A stretch of DNA of 64,000 nucleotides from Rhizodiscina lignyota. Taxonomy: Eukaryota. The position numbers and the translations under genes are program-made. How positions within the stretch are numbered: the stretch's first letter is position 1; each line of letters begins with the position of its first letter. The stretch is taken from NCBI GenBank assembly GCA_010015805.1, contig ML978128.1, positions 992,001-1,056,000 of the forward strand, given 5' to 3'. Shown here piece after piece: positions 17,001 through 48,107 of the stretch. The notes under the pieces were generated by a model that saw nothing but the letters and a program-made list of their open reading frames with translations, ran no database searches and was not told where the DNA came from.

Positions 17001-18039
17001 CGATACTCGGGAGGGGTAGTAGGCTCGCTCTGGTGGCCAGCGAAGGTCGAGAGATCGCTGTGAAGCTTCTGCAATTCCTCTTCTTCACGCTTGCTCTGAA
17101 GATCCAAGAGCTCCATTTGAGTCTGGAATCGGAGACGCTGTTCTTTTAACGCTTCGTATTCCTTCTTCTTCTTCTCCAACTGCATGCTAGTCTTAGTAAA
17201 GTGAAGTGTTTGAATTTTGAAGTGTGGTGTGCGAAGTTAAAAAGGTCGATATCGGAGGTGTTGCAGGGGTCCAAGTTTGATATTGGAGCTTGGGCTCCTC
17301 GCAACACTGAGACACTGAGATTGCAGGGAGCAAATTCACTCTCCTGCTTACAAATGCAAAGCTCTCGAGAAAATAGGCTTGTGAAGGTTCGGTAGGGGGG
17401 TGAGTTGTGGTGGGGTGAAGGAGGTGAAGCTGGAGCTTGGGGGTATCAAGTGGCACGCCTGGTAAGAGGTCGTGCTTTCGCGGGAAAGGAATTGGGTAGC
17501 TTACAAGTTGCACTTTATGATACGTCTGAGATATAATGCAAGTTAGCAAGTTCCAACCTTTTCACAACGTTGAAGAAGAGCATATGTCGCGCAGCGAGAG
17601 CGTCATGCAGAAAGAGCATGGGGCACTTGAAGCTGGCCTCCCCACAATGCAAACTGGTCAACAGGCCAATTGTGCTATCATCTTCCCAAATTGCCCAGAT
17701 TGACTCTTGCTGGGCAACGCCATAGGTGCAGCCCTGAGGTCAAGATAAAGTCACAACCGCTCCACCACGAGGCTCATACAGAAGCTCACTTACCGCAGAG
17801 CTCAAGTCCGTCGACTCCGCTGCCTGCCTGCGCTGTTGACCAATTGCTGACAATGATATTGTAGGAACAGCATTTGTAGTAAATCGGCGTTGCAGCGTCG
17901 TGCGCGGATCGTATGTGGAAGAGGGCATCTCGCCGCCCAGGGCTCGAAGAGGAGAGGTATAATTAAACGACGCTTGTTCTCGCGGCGACTGCGCTTCGCG
18001 GAACCGCATTTCGTCGATGCGGTCGTTGGAGAAGGCCAT
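14083..18039 (-). CDS. Pumilio/PUF-family RNA-binding protein (Puf4/Mpt5-like), 5 exons including a 21-nt microexon
   Basis: The last exon encodes 8 Pumilio repeats (CKDQHGCRFLQKKL, QDPFGNYLCQKL, NQHGTRALQK, DLNGNHVIQK, HRHGCCVLQR, GNYVVQY, KFSSNVIEK, DSFANYVVQT). Upstream exons 18039..17794, 17525..17505, 17179..~16749 and ~16440..15362 join in frame. Confidence 0.9.
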
Positions 18040-19968
18040 GCGGCACAGGATGTTTGCTGTCCCACAGTAAGAGCTCAAGATTCCTTTTCGTCCTTGTTCA
18101 TGTGTCCGCAAATTCTGTGGGGTATGGAAGGGCGGTCTAGCTTTTCATTCTCGGACACGCAGTGTCGAGCGGCCGCCAAAGCGCATAAAGGAACGAGGGC
18201 ACTTACTGATGTCCGGTATAGCAGATCAATGTATCAGGAACGACGAGGGCCAGCGAATGTGGTGGTGGTGACGGGCAGCTCAAGGACTCGGAACGTGAGT
18301 AGGACAAGAAGCCCCGTACCGTCACGCTGGGGCTCTGCGGATGTCTGAGCGCGCCTCACACGGTATGACGGCGCAAATTTGCGGGAGCAAATGGCAGTCG
18401 ACAAAGTCCCTATCATACAATGGACGACAAATGCAAGATACAATGATACACGAAGGGAAGAGTGGAATGTGTGTTGAGGAACTTCATGCAGAGTATAGCG
18501 TGGCGCGCAAGATCAGGGTCGCTTGCATACGCTCAGGGTCAGGCAGGATAGACACGCCCGAACCCGCGGCCAGCTTTGCAATTCTACGCCGACGAGAAGA
18601 GCTTTTCAACCACGAGTGCTACGTTCACCTAAGCAGGAGCTGGCCGTTAACTGCCCGCGCCCCGCTGCCATCCATCTGGTCGGCACGAGTTGTGCTGCTG
18701 CTGGTACTCAGCTCCAACGCCCTGAGTCGTGCCCCCACAAGATCGGCTTTTCCTCTCACGATTGCGCGACTTCTCAGTGGTCTGGCTCCTCACCCGCCGA
18801 TCGGCTGGAATGAAACGGTTGAACAGCCTATCCAGACCGCCCGGACGTGGGAGTTCTAGATACTACACACTGGTCGCAAAGACGCAACCCACACCCGCTC
18901 CAATCCCCCCCGCCTTCCATGTGAGATGGTTTGGTGAGCCTCCTGTTGTTCCTGATTATGTTCATGTAGCATCCCGACCAAGCTATGGCTGCCCTGCAGC
19001 TTGCAACGGCCAATAGACAGGCAGAAACAGAACGGGGCCGAGAGACATACTGGATTTCGCCGATTGTCCATTTGCCGCAACAGATGGCCTCTTCAGAGGC
19101 AAGAGGCGTGCAAATGCCTTCCAACCCCACAGCACGACAAAATGGGTGGGGACTGGCTCGTACGTATTGCCAGGTGGTGGTGGTGCTGTCGATACAGGGA
19201 TAGGTGTCACGGTGGTACGTCTCATGCAGAGGCCAGGCCATCAGAGCGTTCGAGGCAACTCGCCTGTCACTCGTGTGCCGTATTCCGCCAGCGTCTGAGA
19301 ATCGCGAGTGATGGAAATGTGCGAGTCGCATTCGATCAGCGAACGAGGCCATCTCACCGCCCGAAGCGCGTGTGGCCAGCGAAACCAGCAGAACCAGCAG
19401 CATGGGAGGGAGGGGGAGCGACCTCGGGAGCACAAGGATTTCGCTGCAGAAGCCGTGCAGAATCGCAAGCATCGGATTTCGGGACGAAATCAGCTTTGGC
19501 CTTTTGACTGGCGAGTGGTGCGGTCAATGTGCAGCGCTCTTCAGCGTCCGACGGGCAGAAGCTCGTCTCTCTGCCTGGAGTCGGGCGGACAGCATGAGTG
19601 GCGGGTTATATATTTGTCTCGAGCCCGCATACATTAGGCGGTGGTGGACAGTCGGAGTGCAATCATTACGAGTTTCCCATGCGCTGCACGATGCAAGTCG
19701 AGCGGGACGATGTGAAACACGCTGTTTGCTTGCATGACAAACACCCACTGCCAAGACGTCCGCCATGCCATTCCGGCCTCGCGTAGCCCCGGTCCCGCCC
19801 CCGGCCCGGGCCCGCCTCGGCCCATCTTTTGATCTTATCTTATCTGCACGTGATATGCCGCGCTGATCGCATCGCGCGAACCGAACTGGAGTACACAAAA
19901 AACTCCAGCAACGAGTCACACCCAACAAATATGCCTCTTTGAGTTTCGGAAGCCTCTCACCACCGTCC

Positions 19969-22900
19969 ATGGCCCCGAAAGCGAGAAAGGCGGCGCCCGC
20001 TGAGGCTCCTGGAGCATCTGCACAGGTCGGAGATTTCTAAGTGAAGCATCGGGATACCTTCTAACATTTTGCGAAGGACGCCACAAAAGCTCCAAAGAGA
20101 CGAGCTGCACCCAGAGCGACAAAACAAAAAGCATCAATCATCGCTGCTGAAGACGGCTCACGTTCCCAAATTCCAGAGCCAGAGCCCGTAGAGGCTTCAG
20201 CCGCGCCCCAGAGGCCCAGCAAACGGAAGAGACCTGCGCCAGCTCGTGACGACGCGTTTGACGCACTTCTTGAGCCTTTCTACTACGGAAAGTCTCTGAC
20301 TGATCCCGTCAATACCGCCACGGACAAATGGAATCTCCTTCCTGCCTTCCTCAAGGTCAAAGGGCTTGTCAAGCAGCACATTGACTCGTTCAATTTCTTC
20401 ATCGAGCACGAGCTCAAGAACATTGTCAAGGCCAACCAGATAATCCGCAGTGATGTCGATGACAGATTTCTCTTCCAGTCTGTCCCCCAAAGCTTTTCGT
20501 GGTGATCGTTTCCCTGACCGACAGCAGATACCTCGATATCCGAGTGGGCAAGCCCGACAGAGTGGAGGACAACGGTGTTGATCAAGCACTTACTCCCGTG
20601 ACTCCGAATGAGTGCCGTCTCAGAGACATGACCTATTCTGCGCCAATCTACGTTGATTACATGTACACCAGAGGAAAAGGCTTAGTCAGGAAGAGGAACA
20701 TCCAGATTGGCCGGATGCCGATCATGCTCCGAAGCAGGCAATGCATCCTCACCAACAAGACAGAGCATGAGATGGCTAAGCTCAAGGAATGCCCTGTTGA
20801 TCCCGGTGGCTACTTCATAGTACGAGGCCAGGAGAAAGTCATTCTTGTTCAAGAGCAGTTGAGCAAGAATCGTGTGATTGTGGAGGCTATGAAAGGGCTC
20901 GTGCAGGCTTCGGTGACCAGGTAACTATCTCTCTATTACTTTACTAACCCACCTTTATGGTACTAAAGTCTGACAGTTCCACCCACGAGCGCAAGTCAAA
21001 GACATACGTTCTGCTCAAGAAAGGCCGACTGTATCTGAAGCATAACGTCTTCACCGAAGATATCCCTGTCGTCATTGTCTTAAAGGCAATGGGAATACAG
21101 ACGGACCATGAAATTCTGTTGATGGTAGCTGGTGAAGACTCCGACTACCAAGACGAGTTTGCCATCAACTTTGAAGAGTCCATCAAAGAAAATGTGCACA
21201 CACAGCAACAAGCCTTGGAATATATCGGCCCTCGCGTCAAATCGAAGGGAAAGCTCATGGGGAGGATGCGATACTATCACGTTGAGGCTCTTGAAGCGCT
21301 TTCTTCGGTCATCATCACTCACGTGCCTGTCAACGGCTCGAATTTCCGACCAAAAGCTCTGTACATCGCATTCATGATTCGACGTGTCCTCATGGCAATG
21401 CAAGACCCGACCCTCATCGACGACCGCGATTATGTTGGCAATAAACGCCTAGAGTTGGCAGGACAGATGCTGTCACTTCTCTTCGAAGATAACTTCAAGC
21501 GCTTCAACTCGGATTTCAAGCTGCGCATAGAAAAGGTCCAGCGCAAACCGGCACGGACGAACGAATTCGATGCTGCCGACCACTTCTTACAGCATGGAAA
21601 TACAATCACGGCGGGTATGGAGAGGGCAATTGCGACTGGAAACTGGAGCTTGAAACGCTTCAAGATGGAGAGAGCTGGGGTGTCACACGTCCTCAGCCGT
21701 CTGAGCTACATCAGCGCGTTGGGCATGATGACGCGCATTCAGAGTCAGTTTGAGAAGACTCGGAAAGTCAGCGGCCCCCGTGCTCTCCAAACGTCTCAGT
21801 TTGGTATGCTCTGCACTTCGGATACCCCAGAAGGCGAAGCCTGTGGACTGGTGAAGAACCTTGCACTCATGACGCACATAACCACGAATACCGACGAAGA
21901 GTCCGTCCGCAAGCTAACATTCATCTTGGGCGCCGAAGACATCTCTTCGGCCACTGGCGCTGAGGTGCATGCAGAGGGATCGTATACCATTTTCATCAAC
22001 GGTACGCCAATTGCACTCACTCGCCAACCAAAACAGTTTCTCGACAACTTCCGCGGCGTTAGACGCATGAGGCGCGTTTCTGAGTTCGTCAGCATTTTCA
22101 TCAACCACCATCATTGTGCTGTTCATATCGCAACCGATGAAGGCCGAATCTGCCGGCCACTCATAATCGTGCAGAATGGACGATCAAGAGTAAACATATC
22201 CTCTCTTGACTCGTTGCGCAGAGGAACGATGGACTTTGACGATTTTCTTGCGAGGGGCCTGGTGGAGTACCTTGACGTGAACGAAGAGAACGAGTCGAAC
22301 ATCGCCATGTACGAAAACGAGCTCGATCCTTCCACCACCCACCTTGAGATTGAGCCTTTCACGATGCTCGGAGCCGTTGCAGGCCTTATTCCCTTCCCAC
22401 ATCACAACCAGTCACCCCGAAACACTTATCAGTGTGCTATGGGTAAACAAGCAATTGGCGCTATTGCATATAACCAGTTCCACCGCGTCGACACTTTGCT
22501 CTACACGATGGTCTATCCTCAGAAGCCACTTGTGAAGACTCGTACGATCGAGCTCATCAAGTACGACAAGCTGCCTGCGGGACAAAATGCAATCGTTGCG
22601 GTAATGTCCTACTCGGGTTACGACATCGAGGACGCACTGGTGCTGAACAAGGCCAGCTGTGACAGAGGATTCGGACGTTGTCAGGTCTTCAAAAAGGCCG
22701 TGACCACTTTGAAGAAATATCAGAATGGCTCCCAGGAAAGAATCAACTACGATTGCTACGACGAGTCGAGGGCAGGCATGATTAAGCTTGGCACGGATGG
22801 TATCGCTAATCCTGGTGAATTTCTGGAGAAGGGCGACTTCTTCGTGCTGAAACAAATTCCACTGAACACTGGCCCAGCGGCTGGCCGAAGTGGAACAAGC

Positions 22901-42654: not shown

Positions 42655-44948
42655 CTACGCCTTACGCTTCAAAAGGCCCTTGAAGAAGTCGAAACTATTA
42701 CTGTCGCTCTGCAACTGCCAAACTTTCCCAGTCCGTCTATCCTCCCAGCCCAACTCTTCCGCCAATAGCATCCCCCAATCACGCGTGATACCTTTGATAC
42801 GAGCGCGTGCGCCTCCCTCGGTATCGATAGTGACAATCTGGTCACTATGTTTAAAGACATTAGCGAGTTAATCTAATAGATATGGTTCGGGGGACTTGCC
42901 TGTGAAGCCAATTTCGATAGTACATATCCTCAATGTCCCTGCTCCATCCTTCTCTGACGAACTTATTGTATAATTGCTCAAAGCTCGTCAGTATCCGCGC
43001 AAGCAATTTCTCTGTCTGGACTAGCGGTAGGCCCTTTGCCCTGGCGAGTGCGTTGATGCTTGTAGTTGGGGCGGCATTCGCCAAATTTATGCCGACACCG
43101 ACTACGAGGGTGTAATCGGCGCCTGCATAGCTGGAGTTGACTAAGACGCCTCCAATTTTGACATAGTTCTTCTTCGTTGATCCATTCCTGGCATTGCCAT
43201 TGGAAGCAGAGCCTGGATCGGCTGCGTAGATGTCGTTTGGCCACTTGAGCTTGATGTCAAGATCTTGATACCCAGGTTCGTATGTGTGAATGCCGATGAT
43301 AGCGGCAAGACCAGCGAGATACTGCACGAATACGACTGGCGCTGATTGTGTCAATTGCATCGAGTGCCGTAGGACGACGCTGTAAATGAGGGCGCCTGGA
43401 GGGGAGACCCAGACATTTGAGCCACGACCACGACCGGCGATTTGTGTCGTAGCGCTCGCCGTGAATCCTGACGGGAGTGAATTCAGGAACTTGTTATTTC
43501 TGTCGTGATGTTAATTGTGTGCCATATGTTATGGAAAGGAAACAGACTTCTCGAGCAACGTATTGGTGCTGGTAACCACCTCGCCGTACATGAGGTACTT
43601 CCCGAATTCGCCTTCTATCCCTTTCGTCTTCGTTTGATAGTGCCTCAGGTTCGCAAAATACGCATGGTGGTTGAAGTTTGGCGTCTCCTTGTTCGTTGGC
43701 AGGTCTGTCTCGTGGGCAACAAGTCGCTTGACGACTTTATTATAATCGAGAATGATCCTGTCGCCATCCCCATCACCATCGTCAGCCTTCGAGTCTTCAG
43801 TCACCCCCTCAAGCGCAGAAGCAATAGAGCCAACGACTCGGCTCAGAGTCCCCATAGACCACCGCGACGGCTTTTCAAGGTGGAACGTGTCGTTCTCGGC
43901 CTTGATGTACTCCTCACCGTCGTCGAGGGAGATGATGTCCGCCCACGAGGACACGAGCTCAGAGACGTCGGAGGCGTGCTGCGATGAGAGATGGAGACGG
44001 GAGAGGGACGGTACCGATTGTTCATGTTCATTTATGTTCAAGCCAAGCTTCAGAAGGCAAGCTTTGAGAAACGCTGCGCGTGGTTTATCGTCTGCAGCTA
44101 TAGCTTCGACGACTTTGGCGTATGTTTCGCCGCCGTCTTGCTTGTGCAGATTGACGGCCGCAAATCTGTCTCATATCAGTCATCTCCAAGGACTAGGACG
44201 TAAATAAAACAACTAACTCAGGGTGAGGGCCGGTCAGTACGACATGCCCTTCTCCGGCCTTTCGATATACGACTGCGGCCTTTACAGGCCCAGTGTCAAC
44301 TTTTAGATCTTCAGTGAAGCTAGCGAGAACCTCGACTCCTCGCTCCGCAAGCTTGTCGGCATCAACAAAGGCGCCTCCTCCATTGTAGTACACTCGAAAG
44401 GAGTCCGAGAGAGGATCTGCCTGCTTGACCAAGGCAGACTTGTTCACTTTGAGTTCCACAGCCTTCGCTCCTTTCTCGCTGTGATACACGAAGCCTGGGA
44501 ATGCAAGACCACGGCAAATACCAGGATAGAAGGCAAGTTCACGGTCGCCTACAACTTCCATTCTCTTGTCACCAACTTCGAATTCGCATCGCTGGCTGCC
44601 GTAGTAGGCCCCAGCGCAAAGGCCAAGAAATGCTCCTCCCGCATTAACATATTGAATGATCCGCCGGTTGCCTTCGCCGTTGAGTGTGCGACAGTAGCCT
44701 AAGTCTGCGCCTCCTGGGAAAACAAGCAGAGCGCAAGTTGCAATCCATGGCTCTTTGATGATTGCTTCGCCGTTAACAGGGATGACTGCATAGTTAGGCG
44801 AGAGAAGGCGGCGGAGAGACCACACAGCATGACGGACTGACTCCACTGTGCTGCCATTCCCTGACAATGTGTTAGAGCTGCGAATATGTTTTAAAGAAGT
44901 GTTAATACCTGAATAGACCAACACATTGACCTTGCTGGATCCCGTCAT
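42655..44948 (-). CDS. BPL1: Biotin-protein ligase / holocarboxylase synthetase, multi-exon
   Basis: N-terminal BPL_N domain (VLVYSG, FPGGADLGY, GLCAGAYY, GPHPE). Catalytic domain motifs TSTNTLL, QIAGRGRGSNVWVSP, KWPNDIY, KIGGVLVN and GVGIN. Ends SFDFFKGLLKRKA*. Confidence 0.93.
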
Positions 44949-45054: not shown

Positions 45055-45499
45055 ATGGCAGAAGAAGAGAAGAAGAATCAAACGAGCGCTGCAGGTGCAG
45101 AAGATGAGGAGCCAGACGAATGGTATGCCGAATTTGAGGTGGTCGGCTTCCCCGCAAAACCGAAGCTGACGAACGATCTTTGCTGCAGGGACAAAAGGAT
45201 TTTCAGCACCGGATGCGCAGGTACTGAATCATCTCAATGATTATTTTTGATCAGTTTGACTCAAAAACGATAGATGAGAATGCGAGATTGACGGATTGCT
45301 ACTATGAGAAGAAGGACTGGAGAGCTTGTGTAAAGGAGGTGAGTCTGTTGGGACTTGGCTAACCCTCACCGAATGGACTTCATCTCACCTTCGCATTTGC
45401 ACCACCACGACGCTGACAAGGTCTATGCAGATGGAAGAGTTCAAACAGTGCTGGAAACGGCAAGGGAATGATCAGAGGACCGACACAAAAGACGTATAG
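45055..45499 (+). CDS. COA4: Cytochrome c oxidase assembly factor 4 (twin CX9C), 4 exons
   Basis: Spliced product MAEEEKK...EPDEWDKRIFSTGCADENARLTDCYYEKKDWRACVKEMEEFKQCWKRQGND..., with two CX9C motifs. Confidence 0.85.
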
Positions 45500-46119
45500 T
45501 GCTCCTTTGGCCAGCAGCTTTCACATTGTCTCAGATCGCGCGATACACCTCCCTACTCCTTGTCCAATTAGCAGCGTCTTTCTACTCATTTATCACCAGT
45601 TCCTTACATATTCCATGGCTAAATATGAACAATGTCATCCTTCTCCTCCGAATACGTTTGTGGAAGGATACCTCTGCAGAATATCAATCTGTTCATCCAC
45701 CGGCGACCCCTTTCCTCATTCCAATCAGCACGCCGACTCTTCTCCATTAAAGCGTTTAATTCAGTCATCTCTTATTAAACTTAGTCGCAGACGAACAGCA
45801 CAAGTCCATTAGAACCTTTACCGATAGCCACTCACAACTTCCATGACGTCGTGGTAGTCTCCTCAGATGTCAACCGATGCGCCGTCTGCAACGACTGGAT
45901 GCCCACTGTCCGATCCACAGTTCCTCATTGCTCGGACGCAAAAGGCAAACTACCCTTGCATGTCCAGCGCAGCTATAACAGCAAGCTCGTTCTCGTCCAG
46001 CCAAAGACATTTGGACAATAGACACTTGCACGAGCTCATACTGAAAAGTATGCTCGGCTCCGTTCACATAAAGTAGAAGAGCAAAAAAAAAAAAAAAAGA
46101 GAAAGAGAATTAAAAGGAT

Positions 46120-46430
46120 AATTGTCGAGGGCAGAAACAAAAGCTCACCGCCAGACCCCACTTCCGGGAGGAAGTAGAGGCTGACGGCTACGAAACCCCC
46201 TCACAGAACTGCAGGTATTACGCCTTCGCCGTATGGCGACCTGCAGACTGATCCTACGGGATTTCTTCGCATCGCTTCACGAGTAATTTCGAGTACATGG
46301 CAGTGAGCAAAGGGGAGGGGGGAAGGGAAAGGGAGATGTCTTGCCCGAGACTCGAACCCAGTGCACTCCAGTGATGGAGCAGTTGTTATGAGACGTGGAG
46401 GGTTGGGCCCAACGCACCATAACAACAAAG
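46120..46430 (-). ncRNA. Candidate structured non-coding RNA (~300 nt) with Pol III-type promoter elements; identity unresolved
   Basis: Minus strand has TATATA at 46457-62, A-box-like TGGTGCGTTGG at 46409-19 and B box GGTTCGAGTCT at 46348-58. Several long helices are present, and a T16 run lies at 46083-98. Confidence 0.55.
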
Positions 46431-46944
46431 ACGGAGACTCAAAGTTTGACGTGACGTATATACTCACTATCCTAAGAAGGCACGGGTACCGTCGGCAGCG
46501 TTTCTGGCGACTCAACGCGACCACAGCGCGAGACAACAAGGCGGACGAAGGGTAGTATGCGTTTCTACAAGCGCTAATGAGTCTAGTTCCAGCTTGAGGT
46601 TCTTGTTCCTTCCTTGTATTCGCCATTTCGCGGCGTTGCAGGCGATATCAACAAATGCCTTGGCGCCGGGCGTCATGCCAACAAAAACTGAGGTTACTTT
46701 ACTTTTGGCTGCTGGAATTCATTTGTTTTGATAGATTTGAGATTTTGTATTCTATCAAGTGCGAGCGCTCAACTTATAACTCGCACAGAAAGCTCCAGGC
46801 CCCAGTGTTACCTCCTTTGAGATGAGTCACCTAGCTCCAAGCTTGTGGATATAGTTCAAGCTTCACTCGATCATGTATGAGCTCCCGACTTAAGTGAAGT
46901 GAATTCTCTTCCATTTGGGGTATTTGCTACATCAATGAACCGTC

Positions 46945-48107
46945 TCATTCCCAATCCTCGATCTTAAACTCGTACTTCCTGTCTCCCAGACCTTTAGGCA
47001 CTGGATTCACATCCTGATCGAAAAGCGTCCTCTCAAAATACGTCACCTTCCCTTCGTTATCGGCCAATATGACAGTTTGTTTCTGAGTCCCATAAAGCCC
47101 AGCCTTGGTGGATGTATCAGGCACGTTAGGGTTTTCTTGTTCCGTTTCACTCCCTTTGAGCGGCGAGTCTGTTCTTAATGGTGTGGCCACGCCCGATATT
47201 CCTGACGACGGACCCTGCAGTGGGAAGCTTCGAACGAAGACCGACTTCTGCATCTTCCTGGTGTACGCTTTCCACTCCTCCGAGCCGTCGTATGCGGGCA
47301 TCGCATCCGTTGAGAGCACCTTCAGCAGTCGGGAGATCAACCTGTCTTCGTCTTCTTGCGCATCGACACTCTGCTTTATGGCAGTCTCAAGCAATGCCTC
47401 ACCATCGATAACCTTCCTCCACGTCCTGTCGCCGAACGGCCTACATATTGTATCAGCATATGATTTGATTGAAATCCCAGAGGAAAAATATTTGGGCAGT
47501 GAACATACGCGTTAGATACTGCGATAGTCTGGTTTGCTTTTCCAGCAATATATGGCAACGCAGAACCGACAGTCGTGCGATTCGACAATATCGCCAATCC
47601 GCTCGGTCTCTTTCCTTCTCCATTGACGTGTCCATTCTCCGCGCTCTTCTTGTCCCATATCCCCAATTCCCCTAGCTTCCCATACATGAGCGTGAAACCC
47701 CCCACGCCCTCCAACTCTCCGTCCTCCACCAATCTTTTTGCCCACTCCTCTGGCTTCTCGTCGGTTGTTAGCCAGTTCTTGATGATGACCCCCCTGCTCA
47801 CGGCGCCCTTGACTACCTTCGCATCCTCCTCATGGAAGTTGGTCAGGCAGGCTATGCGTCCGCCTTTGGTGATGCCGAGCCATGTACCGTGGGCAGGCCT
47901 TTCCATATCGCGGCCTGAGAGGATGTGGTTGTGTGGAGGGTCCCAGTATGCTGCCGGGGAGGTAGGACGGCAGAGGTATTCCTAATATCCATTCAATCAG
48001 CTAGTGGTCTAGTAGATTTATTAAACATACAGAGGCCTTACATCGCGGTTACTGATGAGGATGAAGGGGTATTTCGGGTGGGAGGTGGTGATGATTGCTA
48101 TGCACAT
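46945..48107 (-). CDS. NRDE-domain / TANGO2 (DUF833) family protein, 3 exons
   Basis: MCIAIITTSHPKYPFILISNRD|EYLCRPT, SGRD, GTWLGIT..GRIACLTN, SRG, AVSNA and YGTQKQTVIL. Confidence 0.9.

Follow-up and report, generated by a model that had tools for sequence, protein, structure and literature searches.

What does the long gap between two convergent genes of the wood-dwelling fungus Rhizodiscina lignyota hold? The window analysed here is a stretch of 64,000 nucleotides (nt) of contig ML978128.1 (assembly GCA_010015805.1, positions 992,001 to 1,056,000 of the forward strand), and all coordinates below are those of the window. At 46083–46462, an earlier note made from the sequence alone had pointed out a highly structured element with signals of the RNA polymerase III (Pol III) type. 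Our analysis suggests, with about an even chance of being right, that this element is an orphan, single-copy, minus-strand Pol III gene, which would give a structured non-coding RNA (ncRNA) of about 335–350 nt. The polymerase, the ends of the RNA and any processing are given here as we infer them.

The first question is whether the element is really structured. The main fold test was made on the 330-nt minus-strand RNA from 46428 to 46099, with 100 shuffles. Its minimum free energy was −123.4 kcal/mol, compared with −96.6 ± 5.5 kcal/mol for the shuffled sequences (z −4.87), and none of the 100 shuffles folded as well. As background, 1158 segments of 330 nt, taken from both strands of the 64 kb, were folded and a subset of them was then shuffled. 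The z scores of 22 random segments were +0.32 ± 0.88, the lowest being −2.44, and those of the nine segments lowest in GC-corrected energy among the 1158 ranged from −1.39 to −3.92. The element is the strongest-folding segment scored in the 64 kb and lies about six background standard deviations out. This confirms what the earlier note had said of its high degree of structure.

Two other segments of the window also folded well. The second-best 330-nt segment scored was 17161–17490 on the plus strand (z −3.92, 25 shuffles), at one margin of the window's largest non-coding gap (17237–20064, 2.8 kb, between divergent genes). The segment 43671–44000 on the minus strand had a z of −3.59 and lies within a coding open reading frame (ORF), 43532–44170.

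Scans with 120-nt segments limited the structure to about 46070–46460, and the upstream region 46400–46700 was unstructured (z +0.4 to +2.4). Because the structure is confined in this way, the fold begins just past a TATATA and stops just short of a run of 16 T (T16). The fold ensemble, computed for 334 nt, has 100 pairs, 12 of them G-U, most helices with a probability above 0.9, and a mean base-pair distance of 25.5. Five of the six local elements fold well alone, and four of the six beat all 200 shuffles when taken alone. The closed domain 46359–46116 had a z of −4.20 and was equalled by none of 200 shuffles. Of the local elements, the 3′ hairpin at 46147–46188 is the most stable. The hairpins of the inner domain are 46312–46265 (z −1.26), 46262–46251 and 46250–46204 (z −3.99), and the hairpin loops of the whole fold are CCCAA, UCAC, a 14-nt loop, CGUA, a 10-nt loop (or AUAC) and UCCC. 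The parts of the fold and the putative signals, in the direction of the proposed transcription, are as follows.

46457..46462, minus strand: TATATA; its first T precedes G46432 by 30 nt, 46428 by 34 nt and the first helix by 36 nt.
46428..46432, minus strand: putative transcription start; the nearest purine at +1 would be G46432 if the TATA stands at −30.
46382..46426, minus strand: 5′ hairpin H1, 45 nt, 14 bp plus 3 apical bp; −18.5 kcal/mol, z −4.32, 0 of 200 shuffles as good, mean probability 0.98.
46409..46419, minus strand: A-box-like site TGGTGCGTTGG, with 3 of 9 specified positions off TRGCNNAGTGG.
46365..46380, minus strand: hairpin H2, 6 bp with a UCAC loop; z −3.31, probability 0.94.
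46348..46358, minus strand: B-box match GGTTCGAGTCT, with 1 mismatch to GGTTCGANTCC, at about +75 to +85 from G46432.
46337..46359, minus strand: 5′ strand of the closing stem, three segments, 17 bp, pairing with 46116–46139; probabilities 0.88–0.92.
46322..46336, minus strand: unpaired pyrimidine tract UCUCCCUUUCCCUUC, 15 nt; unpaired probability above 0.8 throughout.
46196..46321, minus strand: inner domain, closed by CCCCCUC/GAGGGGG (46321–46315/46202–46196); probabilities 0.94–0.99.
46147..46188, minus strand: 3′ hairpin, 18 bp (four G-U) with a UCCC loop; −28.8 kcal/mol, z −5.69, 0 of 200 shuffles as good, probability 0.95.
46116..46139, minus strand: 3′ strand of the closing stem, from the fold ensemble.
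46083..46098, minus strand: T16, the putative Pol III terminator, 17 nt past the last helix.

Most of the helices drawn in the earlier note are present in this fold. The helix 46426–46418/46390–46382 has nine of nine Watson-Crick pairs and the helix 46246–46239/46216–46209 has eight of eight, and 46346–46337/46139–46129 forms with one bulge and has 10 pairs in the fold. The helix 46308–46298/46153–46143 can indeed form 11 pairs, including one G-U, but it is outcompeted by the 3′ hairpin, whose probability is 0.95.

What then would make this fold the product of a Pol III gene? The TATATA (46462–46457) and the T16 (46098–46083) are both present on the minus strand as had been noted before. There are 14 TATATA per strand in the 64 kb, and it is the position relative to the fold that matters, not the motif. 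Apart from the T16, no run of T or A in the 64 kb reaches a length of 8 on either strand. In budding yeast, 7–8 T make Pol III terminate efficiently and the fifth T is required for release, according to passages of a yeast review (PMC5356446). No T run of at least 5 was found within the unit, where the longest are two T4 runs (46142–46139 and 46115–46112), both of them probably too short to terminate. Looked at as a Pol III gene, the unit thus has a TATA at about −30, a terminator of at least 5 T, and no such run inside. By rough estimates, a TATA-type hexamer would fall by chance into a 15-nt slot in about 0.5% of cases, and a single long T run within 40 nt of the end of a fold in about 0.06%. 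The coincidence of the fold, the TATA and the T16 is unlikely to have arisen by chance, even when the reader's choice of the region is allowed for.

Several of our results weigh against this reading, most of them concerning the internal promoter, the defining feature of most Pol III genes in fungi. A search of the minus strand of the element for the A box TRGCNNAGTGG at up to 2 mismatches found none. The A-box-like site pointed out in the earlier note does exist at 46419–46409, but with three of its nine specified positions wrong it is a poor match to the consensus. The B box, searched with up to 1 mismatch, had 1 match in the window where 4.13 would be expected by chance. It stands at a tRNA-like distance from the putative start, though at chance frequency. 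The gap between the A-like site and the B box is 50 nt, the spacing in yeast being 31–93 nt according to the review (PMC5356446); the A box nonetheless fails on its sequence. The T-arm-like hairpin CTGGG-TTCGAGT-CTCGG, in which the earlier note had seen the B box, is present as sequence at 46361–46345, but it is unstable: its energy is −2.7 kcal/mol, 65 of 200 shuffles were as good, and its pair probability in the whole-RNA ensemble is at most 0.015, because 46359–46337 pairs with 46139–46116 and outcompetes it. With a poor A box, a B box at chance level and an unstable T arm, the case for an internal promoter is weak.

The remaining points on this side concern the fold, the framing and the gap. 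The plus strand of the element also folded better than its shuffles (z −2.93, with 1 of 100 as good), so that the signal is partly strand-symmetric. The framing by TATA and T16 is partly post hoc, since the region was chosen for its look. The yardsticks for the terminator and for the box spacing are those of yeast, and the Pol III genes of this host need not carry a TATA at −30 or long T runs. The gap itself, with about 1445 nt separating the two stop codons, is the second-largest of the 17 non-coding gaps of at least 500 nt in a crude coding map of the window; it is long but not unique, as other convergent gaps of 1214 and 1398 nt occur in the window. A Pol III gene is nevertheless the best reading available and a plausible one, and it rests on the framing signals, not on a convincing internal promoter.

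Is the element a repeat or a coding sequence instead? Its copy number was counted in the contigs of one DNA run (15,746 contigs, 34.2 Mb). Two contigs matched at 80% likeness or more, a threshold below which older copies would escape, and both were the locus itself (at least 99%). One of the two covers 46122–46944 within a 35-kb contig, and the assembly breaks only at the homopolymer. There is no second copy of the element in the 64-kb window, and the region left of the element is single copy too. The earlier note had held that a high copy number would indicate a short interspersed element (SINE), and the count turned out to be one. We rejected a SINE on account of this single copy, a T-rich tail on the transcribed strand and the lack of a target-site duplication. 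A retroposed insert ending in the plus-strand A16 is also unlikely, as no direct repeat flanks the A16/T16 and the region to the left is single copy.

The absence of a convincing ORF, also stated in the earlier note, was borne out by three kinds of evidence. An ORF of 141 amino acids runs across the element. In codon usage it scores −0.071, which places it at the 22nd percentile among 143 mid-sized ORFs, and the exons of the neighbouring TANGO2 gene score +0.12 and +0.15. This ORF matched no Pfam family, and none of its 73 and 4 homologue candidates at near or shorter lengths was significant. A protein-coding gene was therefore rejected.

Among the other explanations, the one that survives best is that there is no gene at all, although we think it unlikely. 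The element would then be well-folding intergenic DNA, a decayed tRNA gene or an insertion relic like the ZOD1 and ETC loci, and its T16/A16 would have grown by slippage or be the tail of a retroposition. The chance-level B box and the poor A box speak for it. So does the tRNA search: ARAGORN found no tRNA gene at default settings, and when relaxed it gave only a 'tRNA-Met' with a 115-nt intron at 46335–46535, which starts upstream of the TATA and is implausible. Passages of the yeast review describe ancient tRNA-gene relics that bind the Pol III machinery (PMC5356446). In addition, the unit is bracketed by an inverted repeat (45941–45957/46548–46564), whose 17-nt arms are 88% complementary and have 590 nt between them; such pairs are estimated to arise by chance about 0.06 times per 1.3 kb. 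It might be an old terminal repeat, perhaps what is left of an insertion with which the unit once arrived, although no obvious target-site duplication by its arms was seen. On the other side, well-folding DNA without a function does not readily account for a z that lies about six background standard deviations under the window mean and below all other segments scored, nor for local elements that fold well alone. The 12 G-U pairs, together with the difference of the minus over the plus strand, point to pairing at the level of RNA, not of DNA. The GC content of about 52%, without sign of decay by repeat-induced point mutation, a process linked to AT-richness, likewise argues against a relic, as do the lack of a direct repeat at the A16 and of any other copy at 80% likeness or more.

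The neighbouring genes raise another alternative. The host is a Dothideomycete of the order Aulographales, and one exon of the gene on the right is 100% identical to an NCBI protein assigned to Rhizodiscina lignyota. The right neighbour is a TANGO2/NRDE-family gene on the minus strand (46948–47981, stop codon 46947–46945), as the earlier note had it: PF05742 was found by Pfam on its two large exons with E values of 7.7e-32 and 5.5e-17. The left neighbour is read as a plus-strand gene of several short exons with its stop near 45497, so that the two genes are convergent. The name COA4 given to it before is unconfirmed, as Pfam found no family in any of three short exon pieces. The candidate element shares its strand with TANGO2 and follows that gene, whose stop is about 515 nt upstream.

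The structure could be real at the RNA level and the transcript be made by polymerase II (Pol II), either as a long 3′ untranslated region (UTR) or read-through of TANGO2 or as a separate Pol II ncRNA from the TATA. The shared strand fits this, Pol II too can make use of a TATA at −30, and the internal promoter for Pol III is weak. A small-RNA precursor is another possible role for the 18-bp 3′ hairpin. Such an origin fits poorly with the region 46430–46700, which is unstructured, the fold starting right past the TATA. A T16 directly after the fold would suit Pol III and, as we see it, has no known role in a Pol II 3′ UTR; moreover, a 3′ UTR of about 850 nt is long for a compact fungal genome. 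We consider a Pol II transcript improbable.

Just downstream of the T16 there is a small hairpin, GAGCAUACU-UUUC-AGUAUGAGCUC, seen by reading at 46025–46056 on the minus strand. Possibly it is part of the 3′ UTR of the left-hand gene, which is on the opposite strand. The 120-nt segments across 45980–46129 had z scores of −2.0 to −3.2 on both strands.

Comparison with other genomes was limited by the position of the host. In a collection of 5.8 billion proteins, the nearest relative of its TANGO2 was 74% identical, on a 3.7-kb contig, and the rest were at most 45% identical. This indicates that the lineage is isolated and poorly sampled, so that comparative tests of the non-coding features of the window need new genomes. 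Scans of metagenomes with the TANGO2 exon and with an alignment matched 313 and 316 pattern stretches, of which none was confirmed, and a scan of prokaryote genome contigs for fungal contamination matched 98 stretches, again with none confirmed.

Could the element be a known RNA? The comparison with Rfam proposed in the earlier note matched no known family. At the gathering score there was no match in the 64-kb window. At E ≤10, a stretch of 751 bases gave three matches and one of 388 bases gave two; each scored far under its threshold, and none of these belonged to a signal recognition particle (SRP), RNase P, RNase MRP, small nuclear RNA (snRNA) or tRNA family under the laxest filters (388 bases). 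Across the 64 kb, no tRNA, 5S, snRNA or small nucleolar RNA (snoRNA) gene was detected by Rfam or ARAGORN. A tRNA was rejected, as ARAGORN makes no default call and the T arm is unstable. The earlier note had seen no SRP helix-8 motif, RNase P or MRP region or tRNA cloverleaf, and the results of Rfam, ARAGORN and our motif tests agree with it.

The suggestion in the same note that the element is an SRP RNA did not hold, as no SRP-clan match was found at E ≤10 and the fold has no GNAR loop. Passages of PMC4605306 characterize SRP RNA by the GNAR tetraloop and conserved symmetric loop of helix 8 and by a helix 6 tetraloop with a tertiary-contact adenosine, and state that ascomycete SRP RNAs keep a canonical S domain. 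In our fold, no hairpin carries a GNAR tetraloop, the only one being in an alternative pairing of the 3′ hairpin. The AGCA motif of SRP RNA is absent from the minus strand of the element. A UGUUAU at 46424–46419 differs by one mismatch from UGUAAU, the 5′ Alu-domain motif of SRP RNA; three other one-mismatch sites occur in the same 411 bases. SRP RNA was rejected, since there is neither an Rfam match nor any feature of helix 6 or helix 8.

RNase P and MRP RNA were rejected for want of an Rfam match and of a match to P4 of MRP. The two halves of the MRP P4 consensus, gaaAGuCCCC and acnnnanGGGGCUnannnu (PMC1796607), had no match with 2 mismatches or fewer on either strand. Sites like CR-I of RNase P came up only when 2 mismatches were allowed; there were five on the minus strand and six on the plus strand, about as many as chance would give. 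A C/D snoRNA was rejected because the minus strand has no RUGAUGA C box at 1 mismatch or fewer and no Rfam snoRNA matched. As for an H/ACA shape, judged by eye and with no search for H/ACA motifs, the 3′ hairpin is almost fully paired and has no large internal loop. A telomerase RNA was rejected as well, there being no CCCTAA on either strand of 46060–46470.

It may still be asked whether one of the known housekeeping RNAs made by Pol III, namely SRP, RNase P or MRP RNA, has diverged too far in this isolated lineage for the Rfam models. At about 330 nt, and with a framing of the Pol III type, the element would suit an SRP or RNase P RNA, its 5′ UGUUAU differs from the SRP motif at one position, and SRP RNAs of Basidiomycota have been missed by computational searches before, according to passages of PMC4605306. 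By eye, GAAAUCCC (46265–46258) can pair with GGGGUUUC (46200–46193), a faint echo of P4. This explanation is very improbable, since no SRP, RNase P or MRP model matched even at E ≤10 and no GNAR is in the fold, the passages of PMC4605306 report no S-domain alterations in Ascomycota, MRP P4 is unmatched at up to 2 mismatches and the MRP RNAs of Pezizomycotina are far longer, with a P10 helix of more than 200 nt (PMC1796607), and the putative P4 strands, with no more than about 57 nt between them, are in competition with the helix 46321–46315/46202–46196, whose probability is 0.99.

Thus, of the earlier proposal of a Pol III ncRNA of no described family, the fold, the framing by TATA and T16, the single copy, the lack of coding potential and the lack of a known family stand, and the internal promoter does not. 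How would such a Pol III gene work? TFIIIB would sit on the TATATA at about −30, and TFIIIC on the B-box match at about +75 would perhaps assist. Transcription would start near G46432, run past the two T4 runs and stop in the T16. The RNA would consist of two 5′ hairpins followed by a large domain closed by the pairing of 46359–46337 with 46139–46116. This domain would hold the 18-bp 3′ hairpin and the 15-nt unpaired pyrimidine tract, and the 3′ end would be a free U-rich tail. Two layouts may be considered. In one, the first 85 nt or so would be a promoter-bearing leader that is removed, as in RPR1 and SNR52; in the other, the promoter elements would lie within the mature RNA, as in SCR1. It is possible, though doubtful, that the element is the founding member, about 335 nt long, of an undescribed family of structured Pol III RNAs in an isolated lineage of Dothideomycetes, with a TATA-assisted promoter of the leader type seen in RPR1 and SNR52 and a body that serves as the scaffold of a ribonucleoprotein (RNP). 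That this RNP is restricted to the lineage, with the pyrimidine tract as its site of binding or pairing, is a guess.

To our knowledge, essentially nothing of the Pol III transcriptome of filamentous fungi has been charted apart from the universal RNAs. A literature search on Pol III ncRNAs in Pezizomycotina and Aspergillus returned nothing for filamentous fungi beyond a survey of RNase MRP, which is not proof that none is in print. If the element does found such a family, it would be a new abundant housekeeping-type RNA of filamentous fungi beyond tRNA, 5S, U6, 7SL and RNase P/MRP. If the reading as a Pol III gene is true, it would be a new RNP component, and would provide a natural cassette of Pol III promoter and terminator for a little-studied class of fungi. 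Should the element prove silent, it would be an example of how misleading a TATA, a fold and a T run can be when expression data are lacking. In yeasts, snR52, RUF70, ZOD1 and RNA170 each came from direct experiments, as told in passages of PMC2566860 and PMC5356446.

How does the candidate compare with known systems? The ZOD1 and ETC loci of S. cerevisiae are tRNA-gene relics or lone B boxes that bind TFIIIC. The candidate resembles them in having a lone B box without a tRNA between two protein-coding genes, but no large stable fold, long terminator or TATA at −30 is reported for them, and the fold is the main signal of the candidate. RUF70 of Yarrowia is an orphan fungal Pol III RNA without known function or family in the passages of PMC2566860, and the candidate is likewise a Pol III-type fungal ncRNA without a family. 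However, RUF70 is about 70 nt long, occurs in 13 copies and has no promoter of its own, being transcribed together with a tRNA-Trp gene that precedes it (PMC2566860, same passages), whereas the candidate is about 335 nt long, single copy and stand-alone.

With SCR1/7SL the candidate shares a length of about 300 nt or more and promoter elements in the transcribed region, as SCR1 has them inside the mature RNA in the account of PMC5356446 that we draw on. It differs in that it lacks the features of helix 6 and helix 8 and an Rfam SRP match, and its 5′ end forms a hairpin of its own and is not paired into a long helix 5. In the same account, the A and B boxes of RPR1 and SNR52 belong to a 5′ leader, which in RPR1 comprises the first 84 nt (passages of PMC2566860). 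The candidate is similar: its A-like box at about +14 and its B box at about +75–85 fall within the first 85 nt or so, before a body that closes on itself, and a T-run terminator is found in both. It differs from RPR1 and SNR52 in that its body is neither an RNase P RNA nor a C/D snoRNA, its A box is poor, and it has an upstream TATA, which the yeast review names for SNR6 but not for RPR1 or SNR52 (PMC5356446). If real, the element would add a new family to a kind already known, that of the fungal Pol III ncRNAs.

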